From Alphaproteobacteria bacterium (GTDB lineage Bacteria; Pseudomonadota; Alphaproteobacteria; GCA-2731375): 64,000 bases of DNA. The stretch is from assembly GCA_965232515.1 (NCBI GenBank), contig CBDDPY010000002.1, positions 832,001-896,000 on the forward strand. The letters run 5' to 3'. Position 1 is the first letter of the stretch. Each line of letters begins with the position of its first letter. The notes beneath the pieces were generated by a model that saw nothing but the letters and a program-made list of their open reading frames with translations, was not told the origin of the DNA and made no database searches. Positions 4,936-13,503 of the stretch are shown one piece after another. The translations under genes and the position numbers were made by a program.

Positions 4936-5907
4936 ATGAAGGCAGCCGTGTTGGGCGATGACGACCTGGAGATCCGGGATGTGCCGAAGCCGGCGCCCGG
5001 ACCGGATGAGATCCTGGTGCGGGTGCGCGCCGGCGCGCTCAACCGCGCCGATCTGATCATCGCCAGCGGCCGGGCCCACGGCGCGCTGGGCGGCGCCGGC
5101 ACGGTCATGGGCCTCGAATGGGCCGGTGACGTCGAGGCGGTCGGCAGCGAGGTCGAGGGCCTGAAACCGGGCGACCGGGTGATGTGTTCCGGCACCGCCG
5201 GCTGGGCCGAATACGCCGTCTGCGACCATGGCCGCGCCATGAGAATTCCGGACGACGGCATGTCCTACGAACAGGCGGCGACGCTGCCGGTGGCCTTGAG
5301 CACCATGCATGACGCCATCGTCACCAATGGAGGGTTGAAGGCTGAGCAGGCCGTGCTGATCCAGGGCGCCAGTTCGGGCGTCGGCTTGATGGGACTGCAG
5401 ATCGCCCGCCATCTGGGCGCGGCTCTGGTCATCGGCAGCTCGACGCATACCGGTCGACGGGGCCGCTTGTCCGAGTTCGGCGCCGATCTGGCCGTCGATT
5501 CCAGCGATCCCGGCTGGGTCGGCCAGGTGCTGGAGGCGACCGGCGGCGACGGCGTCGACCTGATCGTCGATCAGATCTCAGGCGTGGTCGCCAATCAGAA
5601 CCTGCGCGCCACCCGGATTTGTGGACGCATCGTCAATGTCGGCCGCCTCGGCGGTTTCACCGGCAACTTCGACTTCGACCTGCATGCGGCCCGCCGGATC
5701 GCCTATATCGGCGTCACCTTCCGCACCCGCTCGATCGACGAAGTACGCGAGATCTTCCGCCGTATGGCGGCCGATCTGGGCGAGGCCGTTCGCGACGGCG
5801 GGCTGGAGTTGCCGATCGACCGGTCGTTTCCGCTTGACGATGCCGGCAGGGCACTCGCCCATATGAAGGCGAACGCCCACTTCGGCAAGATCGTGCTGAC
5901 GGTTTAG
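4936..5907 (+). CDS. NADPH:quinone oxidoreductase (MDR family)
   Basis: LNRADL, GLEWAG, GASSGVG, HFGKIVL. Confidence 0.9.
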
Positions 5908-7112
5908 GGCGCTTCCGGCAACGCGTCGCAGACCGACTCCAGGATCTCGAGCATCCGGTCGACCTCGTCGGTCGTGACCGTCAGCGCCGGCATGAATCTG
6001 AGACTATCCGGACGGGGCGCGTTCAACAGCAGGCCGGCGTCGAGCGCGGCCTCCACGATCGCCGGCCCGACGGGCTGTTTCAGGTCGAGCGCCAGCAGCA
6101 GGCCTTTGCCGCGCACCGCGCCGAAGCCGTGGCGGGCGGCAAGCGCGGTCAGACCCTTCTGCAAATGCTTGCCGGTTTCGGCGACCCGGTTGAGAAAGCC
6201 GGGCTTGATCAACTCGTTCAGGACGGCGAGGCCGCCCGCCGTCATCAACGGATTGCCATTGAAGGTGCCGCCCTGGTCGCCGTAGGCGAAACAGGAGGCG
6301 TCATCGCTGGCCAACAACGCGGCCAGCGGCAGGCCGCCGCCCATGCCCTTGCCCAACGTCAGGATGTCGGGGGTGATGCCGACATGCTCGTAGGCAAAGA
6401 GCGTGCCGGTGCGGCCCATGCCGGTCTGGATCTCGTCCAGGATCAGCAGGATGCCGCGATTTTTCGTGAGTTGCCGCAAGTCCTTGAGATAGCCGTCATC
6501 GGCCGGGATGACGCCGGCCTCGCCCTGGATCGGCTCCAGCATCACGGCGACGGTCTTGTCGGTGATGGCGGCCTCGACGGCGGCGATGTCGTTGAGCGGC
6601 ACCTTGGGAAAGCCCGGCACCTTGGGCGCGAAGAGTTCGTCCCAGCCGGCCTTGCCCGAGGCCGACATGGTGGCAAGCGTGCGGCCGTGGAAGCCGCCCT
6701 CTGTGGTGATGATTTCGTAGGCGCCGTCGCGATGGAGGCTGCCCCATTTCCGGGCGAGCTTGATCGCGCCTTCATTGGCCTCGGCGCCGCTGTTGGCGAA
6801 GAACACCTGGTCGAGGCCGCTGGCCGCGGTCAGCGCTTCGGCCAGCTTGAGCATGGCGTCGTTGTAGAAGGCCGGACTGCAGTTGATCAGCTTCGCGGCC
6901 TGGTCGCCGAGCGCCTCGAGAAGCGGCTTCGGGCTGTGGCCGAGGCAGTTGACGGCCCAGCCCTGCACGAAATCGAGATAAGTCTTGCCGTTCCGGTCGG
7001 TCAGCCAGGAGCCTTCGCCATGGGTGAAGACGATGGCCGGTCGATTGGCGATCTGCATCAGAGGCGAGAAGTCGGTTGCCGTCGGTTTTGGCGGCTGATG
7101 CGGAATGTTCAC
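5904..7112 (-). CDS. argD: Acetylornithine aminotransferase
   Basis: [48 protein letters not shown] start at 7112 after GGAGGA. Confidence 0.85.
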
Positions 7113-7204
7113 GTTGCTGTCCTCCGGTTTGGGCCACCGGGGACAGGCACGAACATCAACCGCTCGACCGATCACTCGGTGGCGGTGCGAAATCTGAATG
7201 TGAA

Positions 7205-7281
7205 AAAGAAAAAGAGGTTGGCCGCCCGCCCGTCAGTAGGCGCGACGTCGCTCGCGGTTTGTCTGTGCAGCGGTTCCAACC
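7205..7281 (-). terminator. Putative attenuator hairpin and U-tract in the argD leader
   Basis: GGTTGG-aa-CCGCT can pair with GGCGG-CCAACC, followed directly by TCTTTTTCTTTTT on the minus strand. Confidence 0.55.
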
Positions 7282-7283
7282 AT
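7233..7283 (-). CDS. Putative Arg-rich leader peptide MVGTAAQTNRERRRAY (16 aa)
   Basis: ATG 7283 to TGA 7233 with CGC GAG CGA CGT CGC near the end; lies upstream of an arginine-biosynthesis gene. Confidence 0.65.
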   Translation of the reverse strand: MVGTAAQTNRERRRAY

Positions 7284-7290
7284 GGCCGGG

Positions 7291-7318
7291 ACCATAGCGG
7301 CATCGCTTTGGATTGCAA
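7291..7318 (-). promoter_or_regulatory. Putative sigma70 promoter of the argD leader
   Basis: TTGCAA-N16-TATGGT, then 7 nt to the ATG at 7283. Confidence 0.5.
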
Positions 7319-7333
7319 GTACCATTCGCGGCG

Positions 7334-8689
7334 TCAACTGGCGCGCCGACCCACGAACCAAAGCCCGGCGCCGCAAAGGCCGGCAATGAGGCCGGCCCAG
7401 ACGAAGACGGTCTGGTGGCCGGCGAGAAAGGCTGAAAGTGGATCGACGCCCGTCGCCAGCGCCTGGCGTTCAATCAGTTCGAACAGCAGCGTGCTGGCCG
7501 TTGCGCCCGAGACGAAACCCAACGTGCGCGTGACCATGGCGAGACTGCCGGCGACGCCGCGCTGCGCGCGCGGCACGGTCTCGACGACGATGTCGAGCGT
7601 CGCGACCTGAAACAACCCCTGACCGAAGCCATGCAGGAACAGTATCGCGATCAGTGCGATTAGACCTGTACCGGCCGACCAACCGGACATCATCAGTAGC
7701 GCCATGGCCATCAGCGCCGCGCCGGCGGCCGCAATGCGGCCCGACGGCATGCGGCGCATGGCCCGGCCGCCGAGGTCGCTGCCGACGGCCATGCCAAGCG
7801 GCGACAGTGCCAGCAGCAGCCCGCCGGTGCCGGCGCTGAAGTCGTGCACCTGCAAGAGGAAGTAGGGTGTCAGCATCCAGACGGCGAAGCCGGCCATCTG
7901 CACCAGAATGCTGCTGATGTTGACGAAGACGAACCCGCCATGCCGGAACAGAGTCATGTCGATGACCGGCGCTGCGATCCGTCTCTCATGCCAGACGAAA
8001 GCAATCAGGCCGATGACGGCGATGCCGAGGAAGAGGGTGGCATCGCTCGCGCGGTTCGGCGCCAGCAGTAGCGCGGCAAGCGATGCGGCAATCAGCGCCG
8101 TGCCGGTCAGGTCGAATCGTTGGCCGTCAGACGGCGCAGGGGTCCCGGCAAGTCCACGCAACAACAAAAGACCGGCAAGAACGATCGGCAGGCGGAACCA
8201 AAACACCGTGGGCCAACCGCCGTAGTCGACCAGCACGCCGCCGATCAACGGCCCGGCGGCGGCGGCGAGACCGAACATCATGGTGTAGGCAGCCAGCATG
8301 CGGCCGCGCTGGGCTTCCGGAAAGCCGAGCGTGATGAGGGCCGGCCCGCAGGCAAGCGTGAGCGCGGCGCCGATCCCCTGGACGACCCGGAAAGCCAGGA
8401 ACCAGCCAAAGCTGGGCGCTGCCGCGCAGAGCGCCAGACCGACGGCGTTGCAGATCAGTCCGGCGGCGAATACGCGGCGGTGACCGAAGATGTCGCCCAG
8501 CCGACCGAAGCCCAGCATCAGGCTGGCATAGGTCAGCACATAGCAGACGACGACCCATTGGATGTCGGGCAGCGACAGCGCGAAGGCGGCGGTGATATCG
8601 GGAAACGCGATATTGACCGCCGTGTCGAACGGCGCCGACGCCGTGCCCAGGCCGACGACAAGCGCCGTCCGGACCTGCGCCCGCGTCAT
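7334..8689 (-). CDS. MFS transporter (DHA2-like)
   Basis: GRLGDIFGHRR motif A, RVVQGIG, many TM segments. Confidence 0.9.
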   Translation of the reverse strand: MTRAQVRTALVVGLGTASAPFDTAVNIAFPDITAAFALSLPDIQWVVVCYVLTYASLMLGFGRLGDIFGHRRVFAAGLICNAVGLALCAAAPSFGWFLAFRVVQGIGAALTLACGPALITLGFPEAQRGRMLAAYTMMFGLAAAAGPLIGGVLVDYGGWPTVFWFRLPIVLAGLLLLRGLAGTPAPSDGQRFDLTGTALIAASLAALLLAPNRASDATLFLGIAVIGLIAFVWHERRIAAPVIDMTLFRHGGFVFVNISSILVQMAGFAVWMLTPYFLLQVHDFSAGTGGLLLALSPLGMAVGSDLGGRAMRRMPSGRIAAAGAALMAMALLMMSGWSAGTGLIALIAILFLHGFGQGLFQVATLDIVVETVPRAQRGVAGSLAMVTRTLGFVSGATASTLLFELIERQALATGVDPLSAFLAGHQTVFVWAGLIAGLCGAGLWFVGRRAS

Positions 8690-9113: not shown

Positions 9114-11006
9114 TCACTCCGCGGCTGAAGCCGAGGCGCGGGTCATCCATTTCTGGAACACCGGCGCTTCCGGCGGATCGAGGTGCGTGTCGGCCCGGCA
9201 GCGCGCCTTCAGTTCCTCGACCGTGCCGCCGAAGTCGAACAGCTTGACGTTGCCGCGCTCGCTGCCCATTCGGCGGCGCAAGTCTTCGGTGGCGCGCGCG
9301 TCGACCTGGCCCTTGTTGTCCAGCACCACGCCATAGCGGCGGGCGCCGTCGGCCGTCACCAGGCCGCGGTCGACGTCGAGCGCGACTTGTTCCGCATCGC
9401 GCTGCAGCGGGTCGCCCCATCCACCGCCGCCCCAGGTGTTGAAGTAGAGTGTGTCGCCGGCCTCGACCTTGATGCGGTCGCACTTCGAGACCATCCATTC
9501 CTCGCTGCCGTCAGCGCGGACCATCAGCTTGTGGCTGCGGGCGCCGGGCAGGCCGCCATTGACGCCCCAGGGATGGGTCAGCCAGCGGTCGTCGTGGATC
9601 GAGATCTCGCCGGGCTCGAGGAACTGATAGCCCATGGAAAGGCCGTTGCCGCCGCGATGCAGGCCCGGTCCGCCGCTGTCGGCGATGGTTTCGTACTTGA
9701 CGATACGCAGCGGGAAATAGGCCTCCAGGAACTCGTTCGGCACGTTGGTGAAGGCGGGCCAGAGCGAATGGCCGTCCGGGCCGTCGCCGGCAGGCCGGCC
9801 GGGAATACCGCCGAAGCCGATCTGGTAGAGCTGGTACCACTCGCCGTTCTTGTCGTAGCCCGAATACATGAAGTGCGGGCTGTCGGAGAAACCGGCGGCG
9901 CAGAGCGCGTCCGGCGAGCCCTGGCCCAGCAGACCGCTCATGATGTCGAAGATGCGGCCGAGCAGGTGGGTACGGCAGCTCAAGGCCGCGGGGCGGATCG
10001 GCTTCAGGATGGTGCCGCGCGGGATGCGCACGTCGACCAGGTCGTAGAAGCCGTCGTTGAACAGGATCTGCGGGTCGAACATGTTGATGAAGAAGGCGCC
10101 CAGGAACATCTTGAACATCTCTTCGTTCAACAGGAAGTTCACCGAGCTGATCGACTGCGGATCGGTGCCCTCGAAGTCGAAGATGCAGCGGTCGCCCTCG
10201 CGCCAGAGCGTACAGGCGATCTTGTACGGGCCCATGCCGACGCCGTCGTCGTCGATATAGTCCTCGAAATACTGCTTCTCCTCGGGCACCACCATTTTCA
10301 GGATCGCTCCCATGGCGCGCTTGTTGCGCTCCAGCATCTCGTCGGTGGCGGCGATGTAGGTGTCGACACCGAAACGCTCGCAGATTTCCTTGACCCGGCG
10401 CTCGGCCAGACGCAGCGCGGCGATCACGGCATTGAAGTCGGAGCGGTTCCAGTCCGGCAGCCGGCAGTTGCGCAGGATCAGTTCCAGGATTTCCTGGTTC
10501 AGCTCGCCCTTGCGGTAGATCTTCACCGGCGGGATCTGGATGCCTTCCTCGAACAGCTGCGCCGCATCCGTCGGCAGGCTGCCCGGCACCTTGCCGCCGA
10601 TGTCGGTCATGTGCCCGAACATCGCCGCCCAGGCGACCATGCGGCCGTCGATGTAGATCGGCATCATGGTCAGCCAGTCGTTCAGGTGGCTGATCGCGCC
10701 GTTACAGCTATAGGGATCGTTGGTCAGGAAGATATCGCCTTCCTCGATTTCGCCGTCATAGCCCTGCTGGAAGCCCCAGAAGAACGAGCCGAACTGGCCG
10801 ACGACCATCTTGCCTTCGTTGTTGGCGATCATCGGAAAGGCGTCGTGCTGCTCGCGGATGCCGGGCGACATGGCCGTGCGGAACAGCACCGCGTCCATCT
10901 CGTCGCGGGCGTTGCGCAGCGCGTTCTCGACGATGTCGAGGGTGATCGGATCGAGCTCGACCTTGCTGAACGGGGTCGTGTTGGTCTGAATGATTTTCGC
11001 GGGCAT
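9114..11006 (-). CDS. Hydantoinase B/oxoprolinase family subunit
   Basis: TNDPY, HLND, HMTDIGG, EEGIQIPP, GGGGWGDP. Confidence 0.93.
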   Translation of the reverse strand: MPAKIIQTNTTPFSKVELDPITLDIVENALRNARDEMDAVLFRTAMSPGIREQHDAFPMIANNEGKMVVGQFGSFFWGFQQGYDGEIEEGDIFLTNDPYSCNGAISHLNDWLTMMPIYIDGRMVAWAAMFGHMTDIGGKVPGSLPTDAAQLFEEGIQIPPVKIYRKGELNQEILELILRNCRLPDWNRSDFNAVIAALRLAERRVKEICERFGVDTYIAATDEMLERNKRAMGAILKMVVPEEKQYFEDYIDDDGVGMGPYKIACTLWREGDRCIFDFEGTDPQSISSVNFLLNEEMFKMFLGAFFINMFDPQILFNDGFYDLVDVRIPRGTILKPIRPAALSCRTHLLGRIFDIMSGLLGQGSPDALCAAGFSDSPHFMYSGYDKNGEWYQLYQIGFGGIPGRPAGDGPDGHSLWPAFTNVPNEFLEAYFPLRIVKYETIADSGGPGLHRGGNGLSMGYQFLEPGEISIHDDRWLTHPWGVNGGLPGARSHKLMVRADGSEEWMVSKCDRIKVEAGDTLYFNTWGGGGWGDPLQRDAEQVALDVDRGLVTADGARRYGVVLDNKGQVDARATEDLRRRMGSERGNVKLFDFGGTVEELKARCRADTHLDPPEAPVFQKWMTRASASAAE

Positions 11007-11031
11007 TGGTTTGTCTCTCCCCGTCTTGGTC

Positions 11032-13503
11032 TCAATCGGCCGGGCGGATCAGGATGTTGCCGACGGCGTCGACGTCGCCGGCATGGTCCGGCAGGATCAG
11101 CGTCGTCGAGTCCATTTCCGTCACCACGGCGGGTCCGTGAATGCGGTTGCCGGCCTGCAGCTTGGCGCGGTCGTAGATCTTGGCCGGCTGATCGCGGCCG
11201 TCGACGAAGACCGTGGTCTGCTCGTAGACCGCGGCGCTGGCGTCGTTGCCGCCCTGCGGTAGTTGTTCGGCCCTGGCGAAGGTCTCGCGGCCCTGGACCA
11301 GGGCGCGCAGGTTGTAGAGCTCGTGCACGGCGTCGAGCGCGAAGGTGAAAAGCTGCTCGTGCATGGCATCGAACTTGCGCCCGACCGCGGCGAGGCCGTC
11401 GCGGGCGAAGTCGTCCGGCGTGACATCCACGGTCAGCCGCATACCCTGGCCGGCATAGCGCAGGTCGATCTGATAGAGCGCCGACTGTTCGCCACGCGGC
11501 ACCCCCTCGGCATCGAGCGTGCGCGCGGCGCTTTCGGCCAGTTCCTCGAGGATGGCCTGGACCTCACTGTCGCTGGTGTCCGTAAACCGGCGTACGAACG
11601 TGCGGGACGCTTCGTCACGGACACGGGTCGTGGCATCGCCGTAGGCGCAGAGCACGCCCGGGCCCGGCGGGATGATCACCGGCCAGGAATTCATCAGCTT
11701 GCCGAGCGCATTGGCATGCAGCGGGCCGGCGCCGCCGAAGCCGACCAGCGCGAAATCGCGCGGATCGTAACCCTGTTCGACCGAAACCAGCCGCAACGCG
11801 CCGAACATGTTCTCGTTGACGATGTTGATGATGCCCTCGGCCGCCTGCTTCAACGGCAGGCCAAGGGCATCGGCGACCTTGCCAACGGCCTTTTCCGCCA
11901 GGCCGACATCGAGTTCCATGTCGCCGCCAAGGCGCGCCGCCGCCGGCAGGTAGCCCAGCACGACATTGGCGTCCGTCACGGTCGGTTCCTCGCCGCCCTT
12001 GCGATAGGCGGCCGGTCCCGGCTCGGCGCCGGCACTCTGCGGGCCGACGCGCAATGCTTTTGTCAGCTCCGGCACATAGGCGATCGAGCCGCCGCCAGCG
12101 CCAACCGTGCGCACGTCGATCGACGAGGCGCGCACCGTCACATCGGCGACGCGGGTCTCGCGCCGGGTCTGAGCGACCCCATGCTGGATGAGGGCGACGT
12201 CGGTCGAGGTGCCGCCCATGTCGAAGGTCAGCAGATCCTCGAAGCCGGCCTGCTTGGCGATCCAGATGGCGCCGGCGACACCACCGGCCGGGCCGCTCAA
12301 CAGCAGGTTGACGGGCGCCGCCTTGGCCACCTCGGCGGACGCCAGGCCGCCGTCGGAACGCAGGATATTCAGCAGCACGCCATTCATGCGGCGGTCGAGC
12401 TCCGCGTGCAGGTTTTCGAGATACGTCGAGACGACAGGCCGGATGTAGGAGTTCACCACCGTGGTCTCGGCGCGCTCGTACTCGTACATCTCCGGGATCA
12501 CCTCGGACGAGATCGATACCGGCACGTCGGGCATGATGTCCTCGGCGATGGCGCGGATGCGCTGTTCATGCTCGCCGTTGGCATAGGCGTTCATCAGCGA
12601 CACCGTCAGCGCCTCGATACCGCGCCCGCGCAGCCGCGACAGCTCCTGCCGTAGGGCCGCCTCGTCGAGCAGTTCCACGATCTCGCCCTTGGCGCCGGTG
12701 CGCTCGTCGGCTTCGACGGTCAGCTCCAGCGGCGCCAGCGGGTCCGATTTGTTGAAGATCACCCAGCCGCCGAGACCGCCCGGCACGTAGGAGCGGGCGA
12801 TCTGCAGCACCTGTTTATAACCCTTGGTGACGACCAGGCCGACGCGGGCGCCGCTACCTGTCAGCACGGTGTTGGTGGCGACGGTCGTGCCGTGCATGAC
12901 GTGGCTGATCTCGGTCGGCTCAATACCGGCCTGTTGGCAGATGCGCTCGATGCCGTTCAGGACGCCGATGGACGAGTCCTGCGGCGTCGACGGCACCTTG
13001 GCGGTGAATGCATGGCCGCTGCCTTCCTCGATCAGCAACAGGTCGGTGAACGTGCCCCCGACATCGACGCCAAGGCGGTAGCCGCCGCCCGACGGCGCGG
13101 CGCGGCGTGGCGTTTCGACGGGCGCCGGCGGCGGGCTTGGCCGGGCCGCGGGCGCCGGCGTCCGCCGGGTCTCGATGGGGCTGGGCTCAACCGTCCGTGC
13201 TTCCACGGCCGGCGGCTCGACATAACGCTCCGGCGGCGGCGCCTCGCGCCGACGCTGGCTTGGCGACGCCAACGGCTTGACCTGAACGGGTTTCACCTGC
13301 GGCGATTTGATAACCGGCGTCGGCGCGATATTTGGCGACGAGCGCGCCGTGGGCGACGGGCCGGACGCCTGGCTGTCCGTGGATCGCGCCTGCGGCGGGC
13401 TGCCGGAGCCGCGCAGGCCCTCCTGCAGCTTGTCGAACTCGCTCTTCAGGTCCGACAGCTGCGACCGATACCACCCCGTCAGATCGTCCTTGTCCTTCGC
13501 CAT
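11032..13503 (-). CDS. Hydantoinase A/oxoprolinase ATP-binding subunit with long N-terminal extension
   Basis: GVDVGGTFTD, HGTTVATN, SGPAGG, DMGGTSTD; strong SD GGAGG upstream of 13503. Confidence 0.93.
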   Translation of the reverse strand: MAKDKDDLTGWYRSQLSDLKSEFDKLQEGLRGSGSPPQARSTDSQASGPSPTARSSPNIAPTPVIKSPQVKPVQVKPLASPSQRRREAPPPERYVEPPAVEARTVEPSPIETRRTPAPAARPSPPPAPVETPRRAAPSGGGYRLGVDVGGTFTDLLLIEEGSGHAFTAKVPSTPQDSSIGVLNGIERICQQAGIEPTEISHVMHGTTVATNTVLTGSGARVGLVVTKGYKQVLQIARSYVPGGLGGWVIFNKSDPLAPLELTVEADERTGAKGEIVELLDEAALRQELSRLRGRGIEALTVSLMNAYANGEHEQRIRAIAEDIMPDVPVSISSEVIPEMYEYERAETTVVNSYIRPVVSTYLENLHAELDRRMNGVLLNILRSDGGLASAEVAKAAPVNLLLSGPAGGVAGAIWIAKQAGFEDLLTFDMGGTSTDVALIQHGVAQTRRETRVADVTVRASSIDVRTVGAGGGSIAYVPELTKALRVGPQSAGAEPGPAAYRKGGEEPTVTDANVVLGYLPAAARLGGDMELDVGLAEKAVGKVADALGLPLKQAAEGIINIVNENMFGALRLVSVEQGYDPRDFALVGFGGAGPLHANALGKLMNSWPVIIPPGPGVLCAYGDATTRVRDEASRTFVRRFTDTSDSEVQAILEELAESAARTLDAEGVPRGEQSALYQIDLRYAGQGMRLTVDVTPDDFARDGLAAVGRKFDAMHEQLFTFALDAVHELYNLRALVQGRETFARAEQLPQGGNDASAAVYEQTTVFVDGRDQPAKIYDRAKLQAGNRIHGPAVVTEMDSTTLILPDHAGDVDAVGNILIRPAD

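Follow-up and report, generated by a model that had tools for sequence, protein, structure and literature searches.

A conserved leaderless arginine-codon leader precedes argD2 in an alphaproteobacterium and may act through a relay of hairpins that hides the argD ribosome-binding site

Results

The DNA analysed here (the window, 64,000 nucleotides of an alphaproteobacterial contig) encodes on its minus strand argD2 (5904..7112), an acetylornithine transaminase of the PRK03715 family (402 aa; 638.7 bits against NF002985, cut-off 568), which is probably monocistronic because the gene that comes next is convergent. Upstream of it and on the same strand lies a DHA2-like MFS gene (7334..8689; TIGR00711 match below cut-off), which is a neighbour only, stands outside the element described below and is present in just two of the loci searched (L001 and L002). 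Further along the minus strand (9114-13503) we noted a hydantoinase/oxoprolinase-like pair with caprolactamase-family matches below cut-off, the alpha subunit of which has a Pro-rich N-terminal extension of ~140 aa before the matched region. Elsewhere the source genome carries a second argD of the housekeeping type (argD1, 47% identity, G000:C2:3571253-3572386), followed by a gene which, judged by its N-terminus, we take to be argF. Distribution of the PRK03715-type argD is patchy: it was found in 14/33 genomes of the family, in 5/401 of the class and in 22/151 in the order of genome G423.

Between the MFS gene and argD2, all on the minus strand, there is a sigma70-like promoter (7291..7318) with the hexamers TTGCAA (-35, 7318-7313) and TATGGT (-10, 7296-7291) spaced by 16 nt, and these promoter-like hexamers predict a transcription start site (TSS) at about 7283-7284. 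An ATG at 7283, which is 7 nt away from the -10 hexamer and has no Shine-Dalgarno sequence (SD), opens a leaderless ORF of 16 codons, MVGTAAQTNRERRRAY (7233..7283, stop at 7235-7233), with the putative Arg sensor codons CGC GAG CGA CGT CGC (7242..7256; segment 1b below), the core of which is conserved in the alignment. GGCGG-CCAACC (7226-7216) and a U tract (7215-7203) come after the stop, and the GTG start of argD2 (7112) is found 91 nt downstream of that tract, where the original prediction had estimated about 90 nt. Promoter, ATG, ORF, Arg codons, the complement after the stop and the U tract were all recovered in the minus-strand places that it had assigned to them.

By itself, this single locus is weak evidence, since of the 831 promoter-like short ORFs that a loose scan of the same genome yields, 51 are Arg-rich. 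At the leader, a strict sigma-70 scan called 0 promoters, a terminator scan did not call the predicted hairpin and U tract as a terminator and a search of Rfam 15 gave no family at threshold (6 weak matches, none over the leader). What raises the element above chance is its conservation across orthologues. In a fixed test, a leader had to open with an ATG preceded at 33-38 nt by a TTG hexamer, run for 10-35 codons and include at least 3 Arg in 5; 6 loci with short upstream DNA were left out. Leaders were scored at 41 of the 46 loci with at least 60% identity (about 27 of these 46 being Bradyrhizobium-like and hence not independent), at 1/8 loci with 50-60% and at 0/54 below 50%. A search for clustered Arg codons in short ORFs upstream of orthologous argD genes had been proposed in the original prediction. 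Four of the five close loci that failed have a leader with a variant -35 or spacing, and one (L056) has none. All 12 close orthologues of a first set have a short ORF that contains or ends in an Arg run, and for the 22 argD genes in the order of G423 a leader was detected in 9 by script and 14 by eye, with none in 8. A scan of metagenomes for the motif produced 9 matches, several of them duplicating loci already in the set: 7 lie with argD, 1 is a leader without argD in the available DNA and 1 is a chance match. The leader before argD is a real, conserved element.

Using a relaxed test we collected 59 leaders among 73 loci with at least 55% identity (8 duplicates or partials skipped). The Arg motif is in frame with the promoter-anchored ATG in 53, out of frame in 1 and unscored in 5, a count that is partly circular as these 59 were preselected, and 1/59 has an SD-like 4-mer ahead of its ATG. 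While the N-terminal codons vary, the Arg run stays fixed in the orthologue alignments, and across lineages it is the only peptide sequence that the leaders share; within one genus, an N-terminus K-L-S-N-I-x-S-L is partly conserved ahead of it. Codon choice within the run is peculiar. CGA occurs in 58/59 leaders (16/17, 31/31 and 11/11 in three groups) and makes up 20.7% of their Arg codons, as compared to 2.5% in argD coding regions and ~4.9% in long ORFs of the source genome, whereas CGG accounts for 7% in leaders against 32% in argD coding regions; in the 17 leaders of the subgroup described below (alignment A1), a CGA-CGY-CGC core is nearly invariant. Plausible Arg tRNAs of the source genome carry the anticodons ACG, CCG, CCT and TCT. 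ARAGORN also called a tRNA-Arg(TCG) (G000:C2:983599-983694), which is probably false given its size (96 nt), GC content (86.5%) and non-canonical loops. From this plausible tRNA set and the wobble rule, by which codons are assigned to tRNA-Arg(ICG), it follows that 90% of the leader Arg codons would be read by this one tRNA, known as a starvation-sensitive isoacceptor. The strong preference for CGA points to tuning by a single tRNA isoacceptor; CGA could also be maintained by RNA pairing or shared ancestry.

Transcription start data come from Bradyrhizobium diazoefficiens. The consulted part of PMC4842269 places a TSS of blr4582 at 5073555, with a peak of 93 in nodules and 8 in free-living cells (~12x), and the 60-nt upstream string printed there matches the promoter of named Bradyrhizobium loci, with TTGAC at -37. 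In these named loci, the leader ATG sits 36-38 nt from the TTG. In the accessible text of PMC10888616, blr4582 is named argD2 and motifs are printed at -243 and -170; the former lies 51 nt before the TSS and the latter equals codons 8-11 of an L042-type leader. With the leader deduced in this way from two printed motifs plus named relatives, the TSS of blr4582 would fall at -192 and its leader ATG at -191. Hence the TSS expected at the leader ATG has a likely counterpart in an orthologue (B. japonicum USDA 110), about 1 nt before the ATG as far as the two partly consulted sources allow it to be placed. The same excerpt of PMC10888616 gives argD2 as up 48.9x (RNA) and 18.2x (protein) in a phaR mutant; to these phaR and nodule effects, an attenuator could contribute via arginine or nitrogen status.

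Within the source genome, a script test found no Arg leader before argG, argH, argJ, argB, two PF01118 (argC-like) hits or argD1, and flagged one unrelated ORF that overlaps an upstream gene. As the other arg genes checked are without such a leader, it would control one paralogue only. ArgR (PF01316) was not found in the source genome (96% complete) by a search that, as a control, matched in 9/14 genomes.

Seventeen distinct leaders including the one at this locus (alignment A1) form a subgroup in which a short ORF stops right after the Arg run; downstream come segment 2, which is rich in G, then a spacer of pyrimidines and another two hairpins, of which the distal one lies over the SD. At this locus and on the minus strand throughout, segment 1a (first codons, 7270..7281) is the 5' arm of a protector stem 1:2 in the minimum free energy (MFE) fold. 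Segment 2 (GGGCGGGCGG-CCAACC, 7216..7232) directly follows the stop, can pair with 1 or 3 according to alignment and pairing test and is among the most conserved non-coding columns of A1. From its composition, the U/C-rich spacer next to it (7191..7215, including the U tract) is a candidate RNAP pause, Rho-loading site or 2:3 loop. In folds there follow a relay hairpin 3:4 (7159..7186) and a hairpin 5:6 (7117..7150), which covers the SD GGAGG (7125-7121) by pairing of an anti-SD CTGTCC (7146-7141) with GGACAG; in addition, segment 5b CGGTGGC (7139-7133) can pair with 3b. Neither of the latter two hairpins (7186-7159 and 7146-7117, the second hiding the argD SD) formed part of the original prediction. 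Contigs from related strains in RNA runs, which are covered at flat depth and show no transcript starts or ends, differ at 7270, where the inner stem would be kept by a G-U pair, and at 7155-7157 in the tail after hairpin 3:4, both being among the 40 of 105 differences listed.

Subgroup spacers have at least 5 U in 8 nt in 16/17 members and more C than G in 17/17; L113 has lost the U tract, and in L002 and L032 it is interrupted. Hairpin 3:4 resembles the terminator hairpin of a relative (L111), but its U tail is poor, and the terminator scan did not call it. At this locus the tail reads UGAUGUUC (~4 U in 8), most members have 4-5 U in 8 nt and at least 5 U were counted in 6/17 of the subgroup, the hairpin picker having taken 4:5a in place of 3:4 in L010 and L032, whereas in L111 a similar hairpin runs into 7 U in 8 nt. 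In most of the 42 non-subgroup relatives examined, the leader is longer and a strong hairpin runs into a U-rich tail; at least 5 U were counted there in 23/42, an undercount as extended stems absorb U's. A quick tree resolves the subgroup as two clades in an open polytomy with L111 and gives no order of events for the terminator and anti-SD architectures. In L137, and probably also in L138, the leader passes from hairpin 3:4 straight into mid-argD, with the L137 junction suggesting deletion or misassembly at a short G/C-rich repeat.

To what extent are these helices maintained? When cognate were compared with swapped segments from four lineage groups, 1a:2b, 2:3, 4:5a and 5a:6 each ranked 1/24, 3b:5b ranked 2/24 and 3:4 ranked 3/24, while 1 of 13 control pairings ranked third or better and 1b:2 (rank 13/24) gave no covariation; these ranks are biased by helices having been chosen by eye from the sequences tested and stand for four lineage groups only. 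At this locus, 3b:5b shows a two-sided change (GCCACCG:CGGUGGC vs CGCCGCC:GGCGGCG). Opening of the SD is costlier in the subgroup (median 10.7 kcal/mol, 17/17) than in the other groups (4.6, 30/31, and 4.8, 9/11), and with 5a:6 present in MFE folds the SD is hidden in the subgroup but not in the terminator-type relatives. As for the 1:2 hairpin of the original prediction, its pairing across lineages stands (rank 1/24) but its role as terminator does not: it is the MFE fold (-27.9 kcal/mol), yet 76/200 shuffles are as good (z -0.28) and it was not called as a terminator. In these folds it looks like a protector or pause stem rather than a terminator.

We modelled the switch by placing a ribosome on subgroup leaders. 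With the ribosome at the stop, where it masks the G-rich 3' portion of the inner stem, 3:4 folds in 17/17 and 4:5a is about 0 at full length. With the ribosome on the first Arg codon, mean 2:3 pairs rise from 0.7 to 6.3 and, at the transcript length that just includes segment 4, 3:4 is weakened in 16/17. At full length the modelled stall raises 4:5a to 5-9 bp in L001 (5.2 bp), L002, L010 and L011, and 5a:6 persists in most stalled folds. In equilibrium, SD opening drops on stalling in 14/17 (median -1.8 kcal/mol); shuffled segment 2 lowers it alike (median -1.4), the real sequence being better in just 7/17, and findpath barriers were mixed with no clean pattern. Among the 42 non-subgroup leaders, the stall weakened the terminator at equilibrium in just 3, and an antiterminator was not seen there. 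The stall originally predicted, which was to block the GGTTGG/CCAACC hairpin and U tract, is at odds with the model in that both arms of the outer stem stay clear of a ribosome at the Arg run, and 1a:2b survives.

Discussion

Our findings make it very probable that argD is controlled by a ribosome-mediated attenuator with Arg codons as its sensor. The core idea of the original prediction, a leaderless Arg-codon leader tied to argD, is borne out by conservation with a fixed Arg run, by an orthologue whose TSS, on partly consulted sources, fits and by a genome in which ArgR was not detected. How the sensor is read out is less clear. At this locus we favour, by a modest degree, translational output through an anti-SD relay that would govern access to the argD ribosome-binding site.

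In such a relay, transcription would start at or 1 nt before the leader AUG, as the mapped orthologue TSS suggests, and a ribosome would load leaderlessly at this AUG. When charged tRNA-Arg(ICG) is plentiful, the Arg run would be read to the stop and segment 2 be covered by the ribosome or, after release, be held in 1:2, so that 3:4 and 5:6 could fold and hide the argD SD; under these arginine-replete conditions, untranslated mRNA may additionally be shortened by Rho at the C-rich spacer. When arginine is short, the ribosome would wait at CGA/CGT/CGC with segment 2 left free, and 2:3 is modelled to break 3:4. While the SD is still to be transcribed, segment 4 could then pair with the anti-SD (4:5a, with 3b:5b as a brace), so that the SD would be free for the 30S subunit. 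We infer that release of the SD by stalling, if the relay works, is kinetic and set during transcription.

Beyond this locus we put forward, tentatively and with somewhat less than even confidence, that a mobile argD paralogue of ArgR-less alpha- and beta-proteobacteria carries a leaderless, CGA-tuned Arg leader with two outputs, a terminator in Bradyrhizobium and beta-proteobacteria and an SD relay in the marine alphaproteobacterial subgroup. As part of this reading, the subgroup relay of three hairpins (2:3, 4:5a and 3b:5b versus 3:4 and 5:6) would be set kinetically and would open an SD that is 120-140 nt away. If true, the subgroup would offer a naturally occurring example of how a transcription attenuator is rewired to act on translation.

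Other readings of the same data need to be weighed. The original prediction had the decision made at the 1:2 hairpin and its U tract or at a Rho site. In such a version, termination would be intrinsic or, at the C-rich spacer, Rho-dependent, with the termination site hidden by a stalled ribosome (or by 2:3) and exposed by release after fast translation. To our minds this is unlikely, even though 1a:2b is the best-kept pairing (rank 1/24) and abuts the U tract, spacers are rich in U (at least 5 in 8 nt, 16/17) and in C over G (17/17), stalled folds of several members draw the U tract into the 2:3 stem and a precedent exists in the excerpted text of PMC6386406, where translation of the Salmonella speF leader blocks Rho. 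A ribosome at the Arg run covers neither outer-stem arm, and as a simple terminator 1:2 would have the wrong sign unless ribosome release were timed against RNAP. Moreover, the stem encloses ~50 nt, is no more stable than shuffles and goes uncalled in the terminator scan, its U tract is missing from L113 and interrupted in L002 and L032, and the conserved 3:4, 4:5 and 5:6 helices are left unexplained.

Quite unlikely, too, is a trp-type transcription attenuator, in which 3:4 would be a weak intrinsic terminator and the anti-SD hairpin a constant brake or second layer. Conserved 4:5a and 3b:5b would be pointless if transcription ended at segment 4, the tail at this locus has ~4 U in 8 and the hidden SD is particular to this subgroup. 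Yet the 1:2, 2:3 and 3:4 geometry fits the textbook layout, L111 has 7 U in 8 nt after its hairpin and a hairpin with U-rich tail is found in most of the other relatives; even in the subgroup, 4-5 U in 8 nt follow 3:4 in most members, and the part of PMC2965389 consulted predicts terminators before argD of B. japonicum, Ralstonia and others. SD hiding could also be combined with termination, either at the U/C-rich spacer (Rho-dependent or intrinsic) or, weakly, at 3:4.

The leader might instead sense another signal, either as a small-molecule-dependent arrest peptide with ornithine or arginine in the exit tunnel or through general translation speed. SpeFL and the fungal arginine attenuator peptide are small-molecule-dependent arrest peptides of this sort, but a conserved peptide beyond the sensor codons, as would place argD leaders in their company, is absent from them: outside the Arg run there is no conservation across lineages, and the K-L-S-N-I-x-S-L N-terminus is partly conserved in one genus. 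Rare CGA codons would slow any ribosome, and in the portions of PMC10888616 and PMC4842269 at hand, argD2 of B. diazoefficiens responds strongly to loss of PhaR (48.9x RNA, 18.2x protein) and has a higher TSS peak in nodules (93 vs 8). Given that the regulated gene belongs to the arginine pathway, we consider this reading improbable. Finally, a chance ORF in a GC-rich intergenic region with a hairpin that merely terminates the upstream MFS gene, the fallback named in the original prediction should orthologues lack a conserved Arg uORF, might suit the 51/831 Arg-rich short ORFs and the fold z of -0.28 but is highly improbable, as the element accompanies argD past different upstream neighbours and precedes 41/46 close but 0/54 distant loci, and the MFS terminator is ruled out by an MFS gene that occurs only at L001 and L002.

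How does the favoured Arg-codon attenuator with anti-SD relay compare to known systems? In trpL, hisL, pheL, thrL, leuL and ilvL, a short ORF with cognate codons stops near segment 2. The argD leaders share this layout and, by prediction, the mutually exclusive 1:2, 2:3 and 3:4 helices before a biosynthetic gene and differ in Arg specificity and leaderless start; those of Bradyrhizobium and beta-proteobacteria end in a terminator-like hairpin as trpL-type leaders do, whereas in the subgroup 3:4 is without a proper U tract and is followed by the anti-SD relay. Going by the accessible part of 10.1101/834739, the working model that comes nearest is Ms5788A, a polycysteine translational attenuator of mycobacteria with a leaderless sORF at the 5' end and a run of cognate codons, where stalling is proposed to free a downstream ribosome-binding site. 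It differs in amino acid and host (Cys in mycobacteria versus Arg in Proteobacteria) and in that its stalled ribosome blocks the sequestering structure, while the argD leader would need a helix relay over ~120 nt; also, the Ms5788A mechanism was shown by experiment and that of the argD leader is predicted. In ermC/cat (same excerpt of 10.1101/834739), a stalled leader ribosome likewise rearranges hairpins to free the SD, but they sense antibiotics via the nascent peptide and the signal for the argD leader would be aminoacyl-tRNA supply.

Arg-codon uORFs that report arginine supply are described for speF (orf34) and for rbfL of S. aureus in the parts of PMC6386406 and PMC13009471 that were consulted; in the case of speF, Rho and an RBS-sequestering structure take part too. 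Neither uORF acts on arginine synthesis, the targets being polyamine synthesis and a biofilm regulator, respectively, and rbfL uses AGA/AGG to repress in shortage, in contrast to CGA/CGC/CGT and predicted induction with the argD leader. The available sections of PMC2965389 (2010) predict terminators before argD-annotated genes of B. japonicum USDA 110, Ralstonia, Rhodoferax and others, with the mechanism given as '?'. In the rows seen there, family HBG408326 (28 rows, many of them other aminotransferases) has no Arg leader peptide annotated, and its predicted-terminator rows do not cover the anti-SD subgroup. PMC8632094, in the text consulted, has Cys and Arg-Leu-Arg uORFs and none for argD. 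Across the full-text literature searched, in which subscription journals are mostly uncovered, we found no Arg-codon leader before an arginine-biosynthesis gene.

The subgroup may hold a second readout for one sensor and is of interest for the way in which attenuators change between transcriptional and translational control. To our knowledge, arginine is missing from the textbook list of leader-peptide attenuators. The element is new in specificity (arginine) and, for the subgroup, probably in output (SD release). Among Proteobacteria, ArgR is reported absent outside Gammaproteobacteria (PMC5343134, as far as the portion seen goes). With its mapped TSS fitting a leaderless start, argD2 of B. 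diazoefficiens makes the element directly testable in a model that is tractable and harmless.

Several leaders depart from the common plan. In those of Bradyrhizobium (L031-L061, L108), Arg codons cluster twice, at codons ~13-16 and in the last 4-5, with an Asp-rich linker in between; the second cluster carries CGA CGA. L126 and L128 have an Arg leader MSAIPxLRRRGRRRS... ~150-80 nt before argD, the ATG of which overlaps the stop of the upstream gene (ATGA); without a promoter of its own and terminating in a terminator-like hairpin, it is possibly a translationally coupled attenuator inside an operon. The short Arg leader before argD at L130, where a terminator-like U tract is not obvious, may represent an independent variant that has no terminator. 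Three more distant argD homologues at 52-54% identity (L060, L065, L066) lack an Arg leader; upstream they have an AT-rich repeat, which we presume to resemble an ARG box, and this suggests that repressor and leader control were swapped along the argD family.
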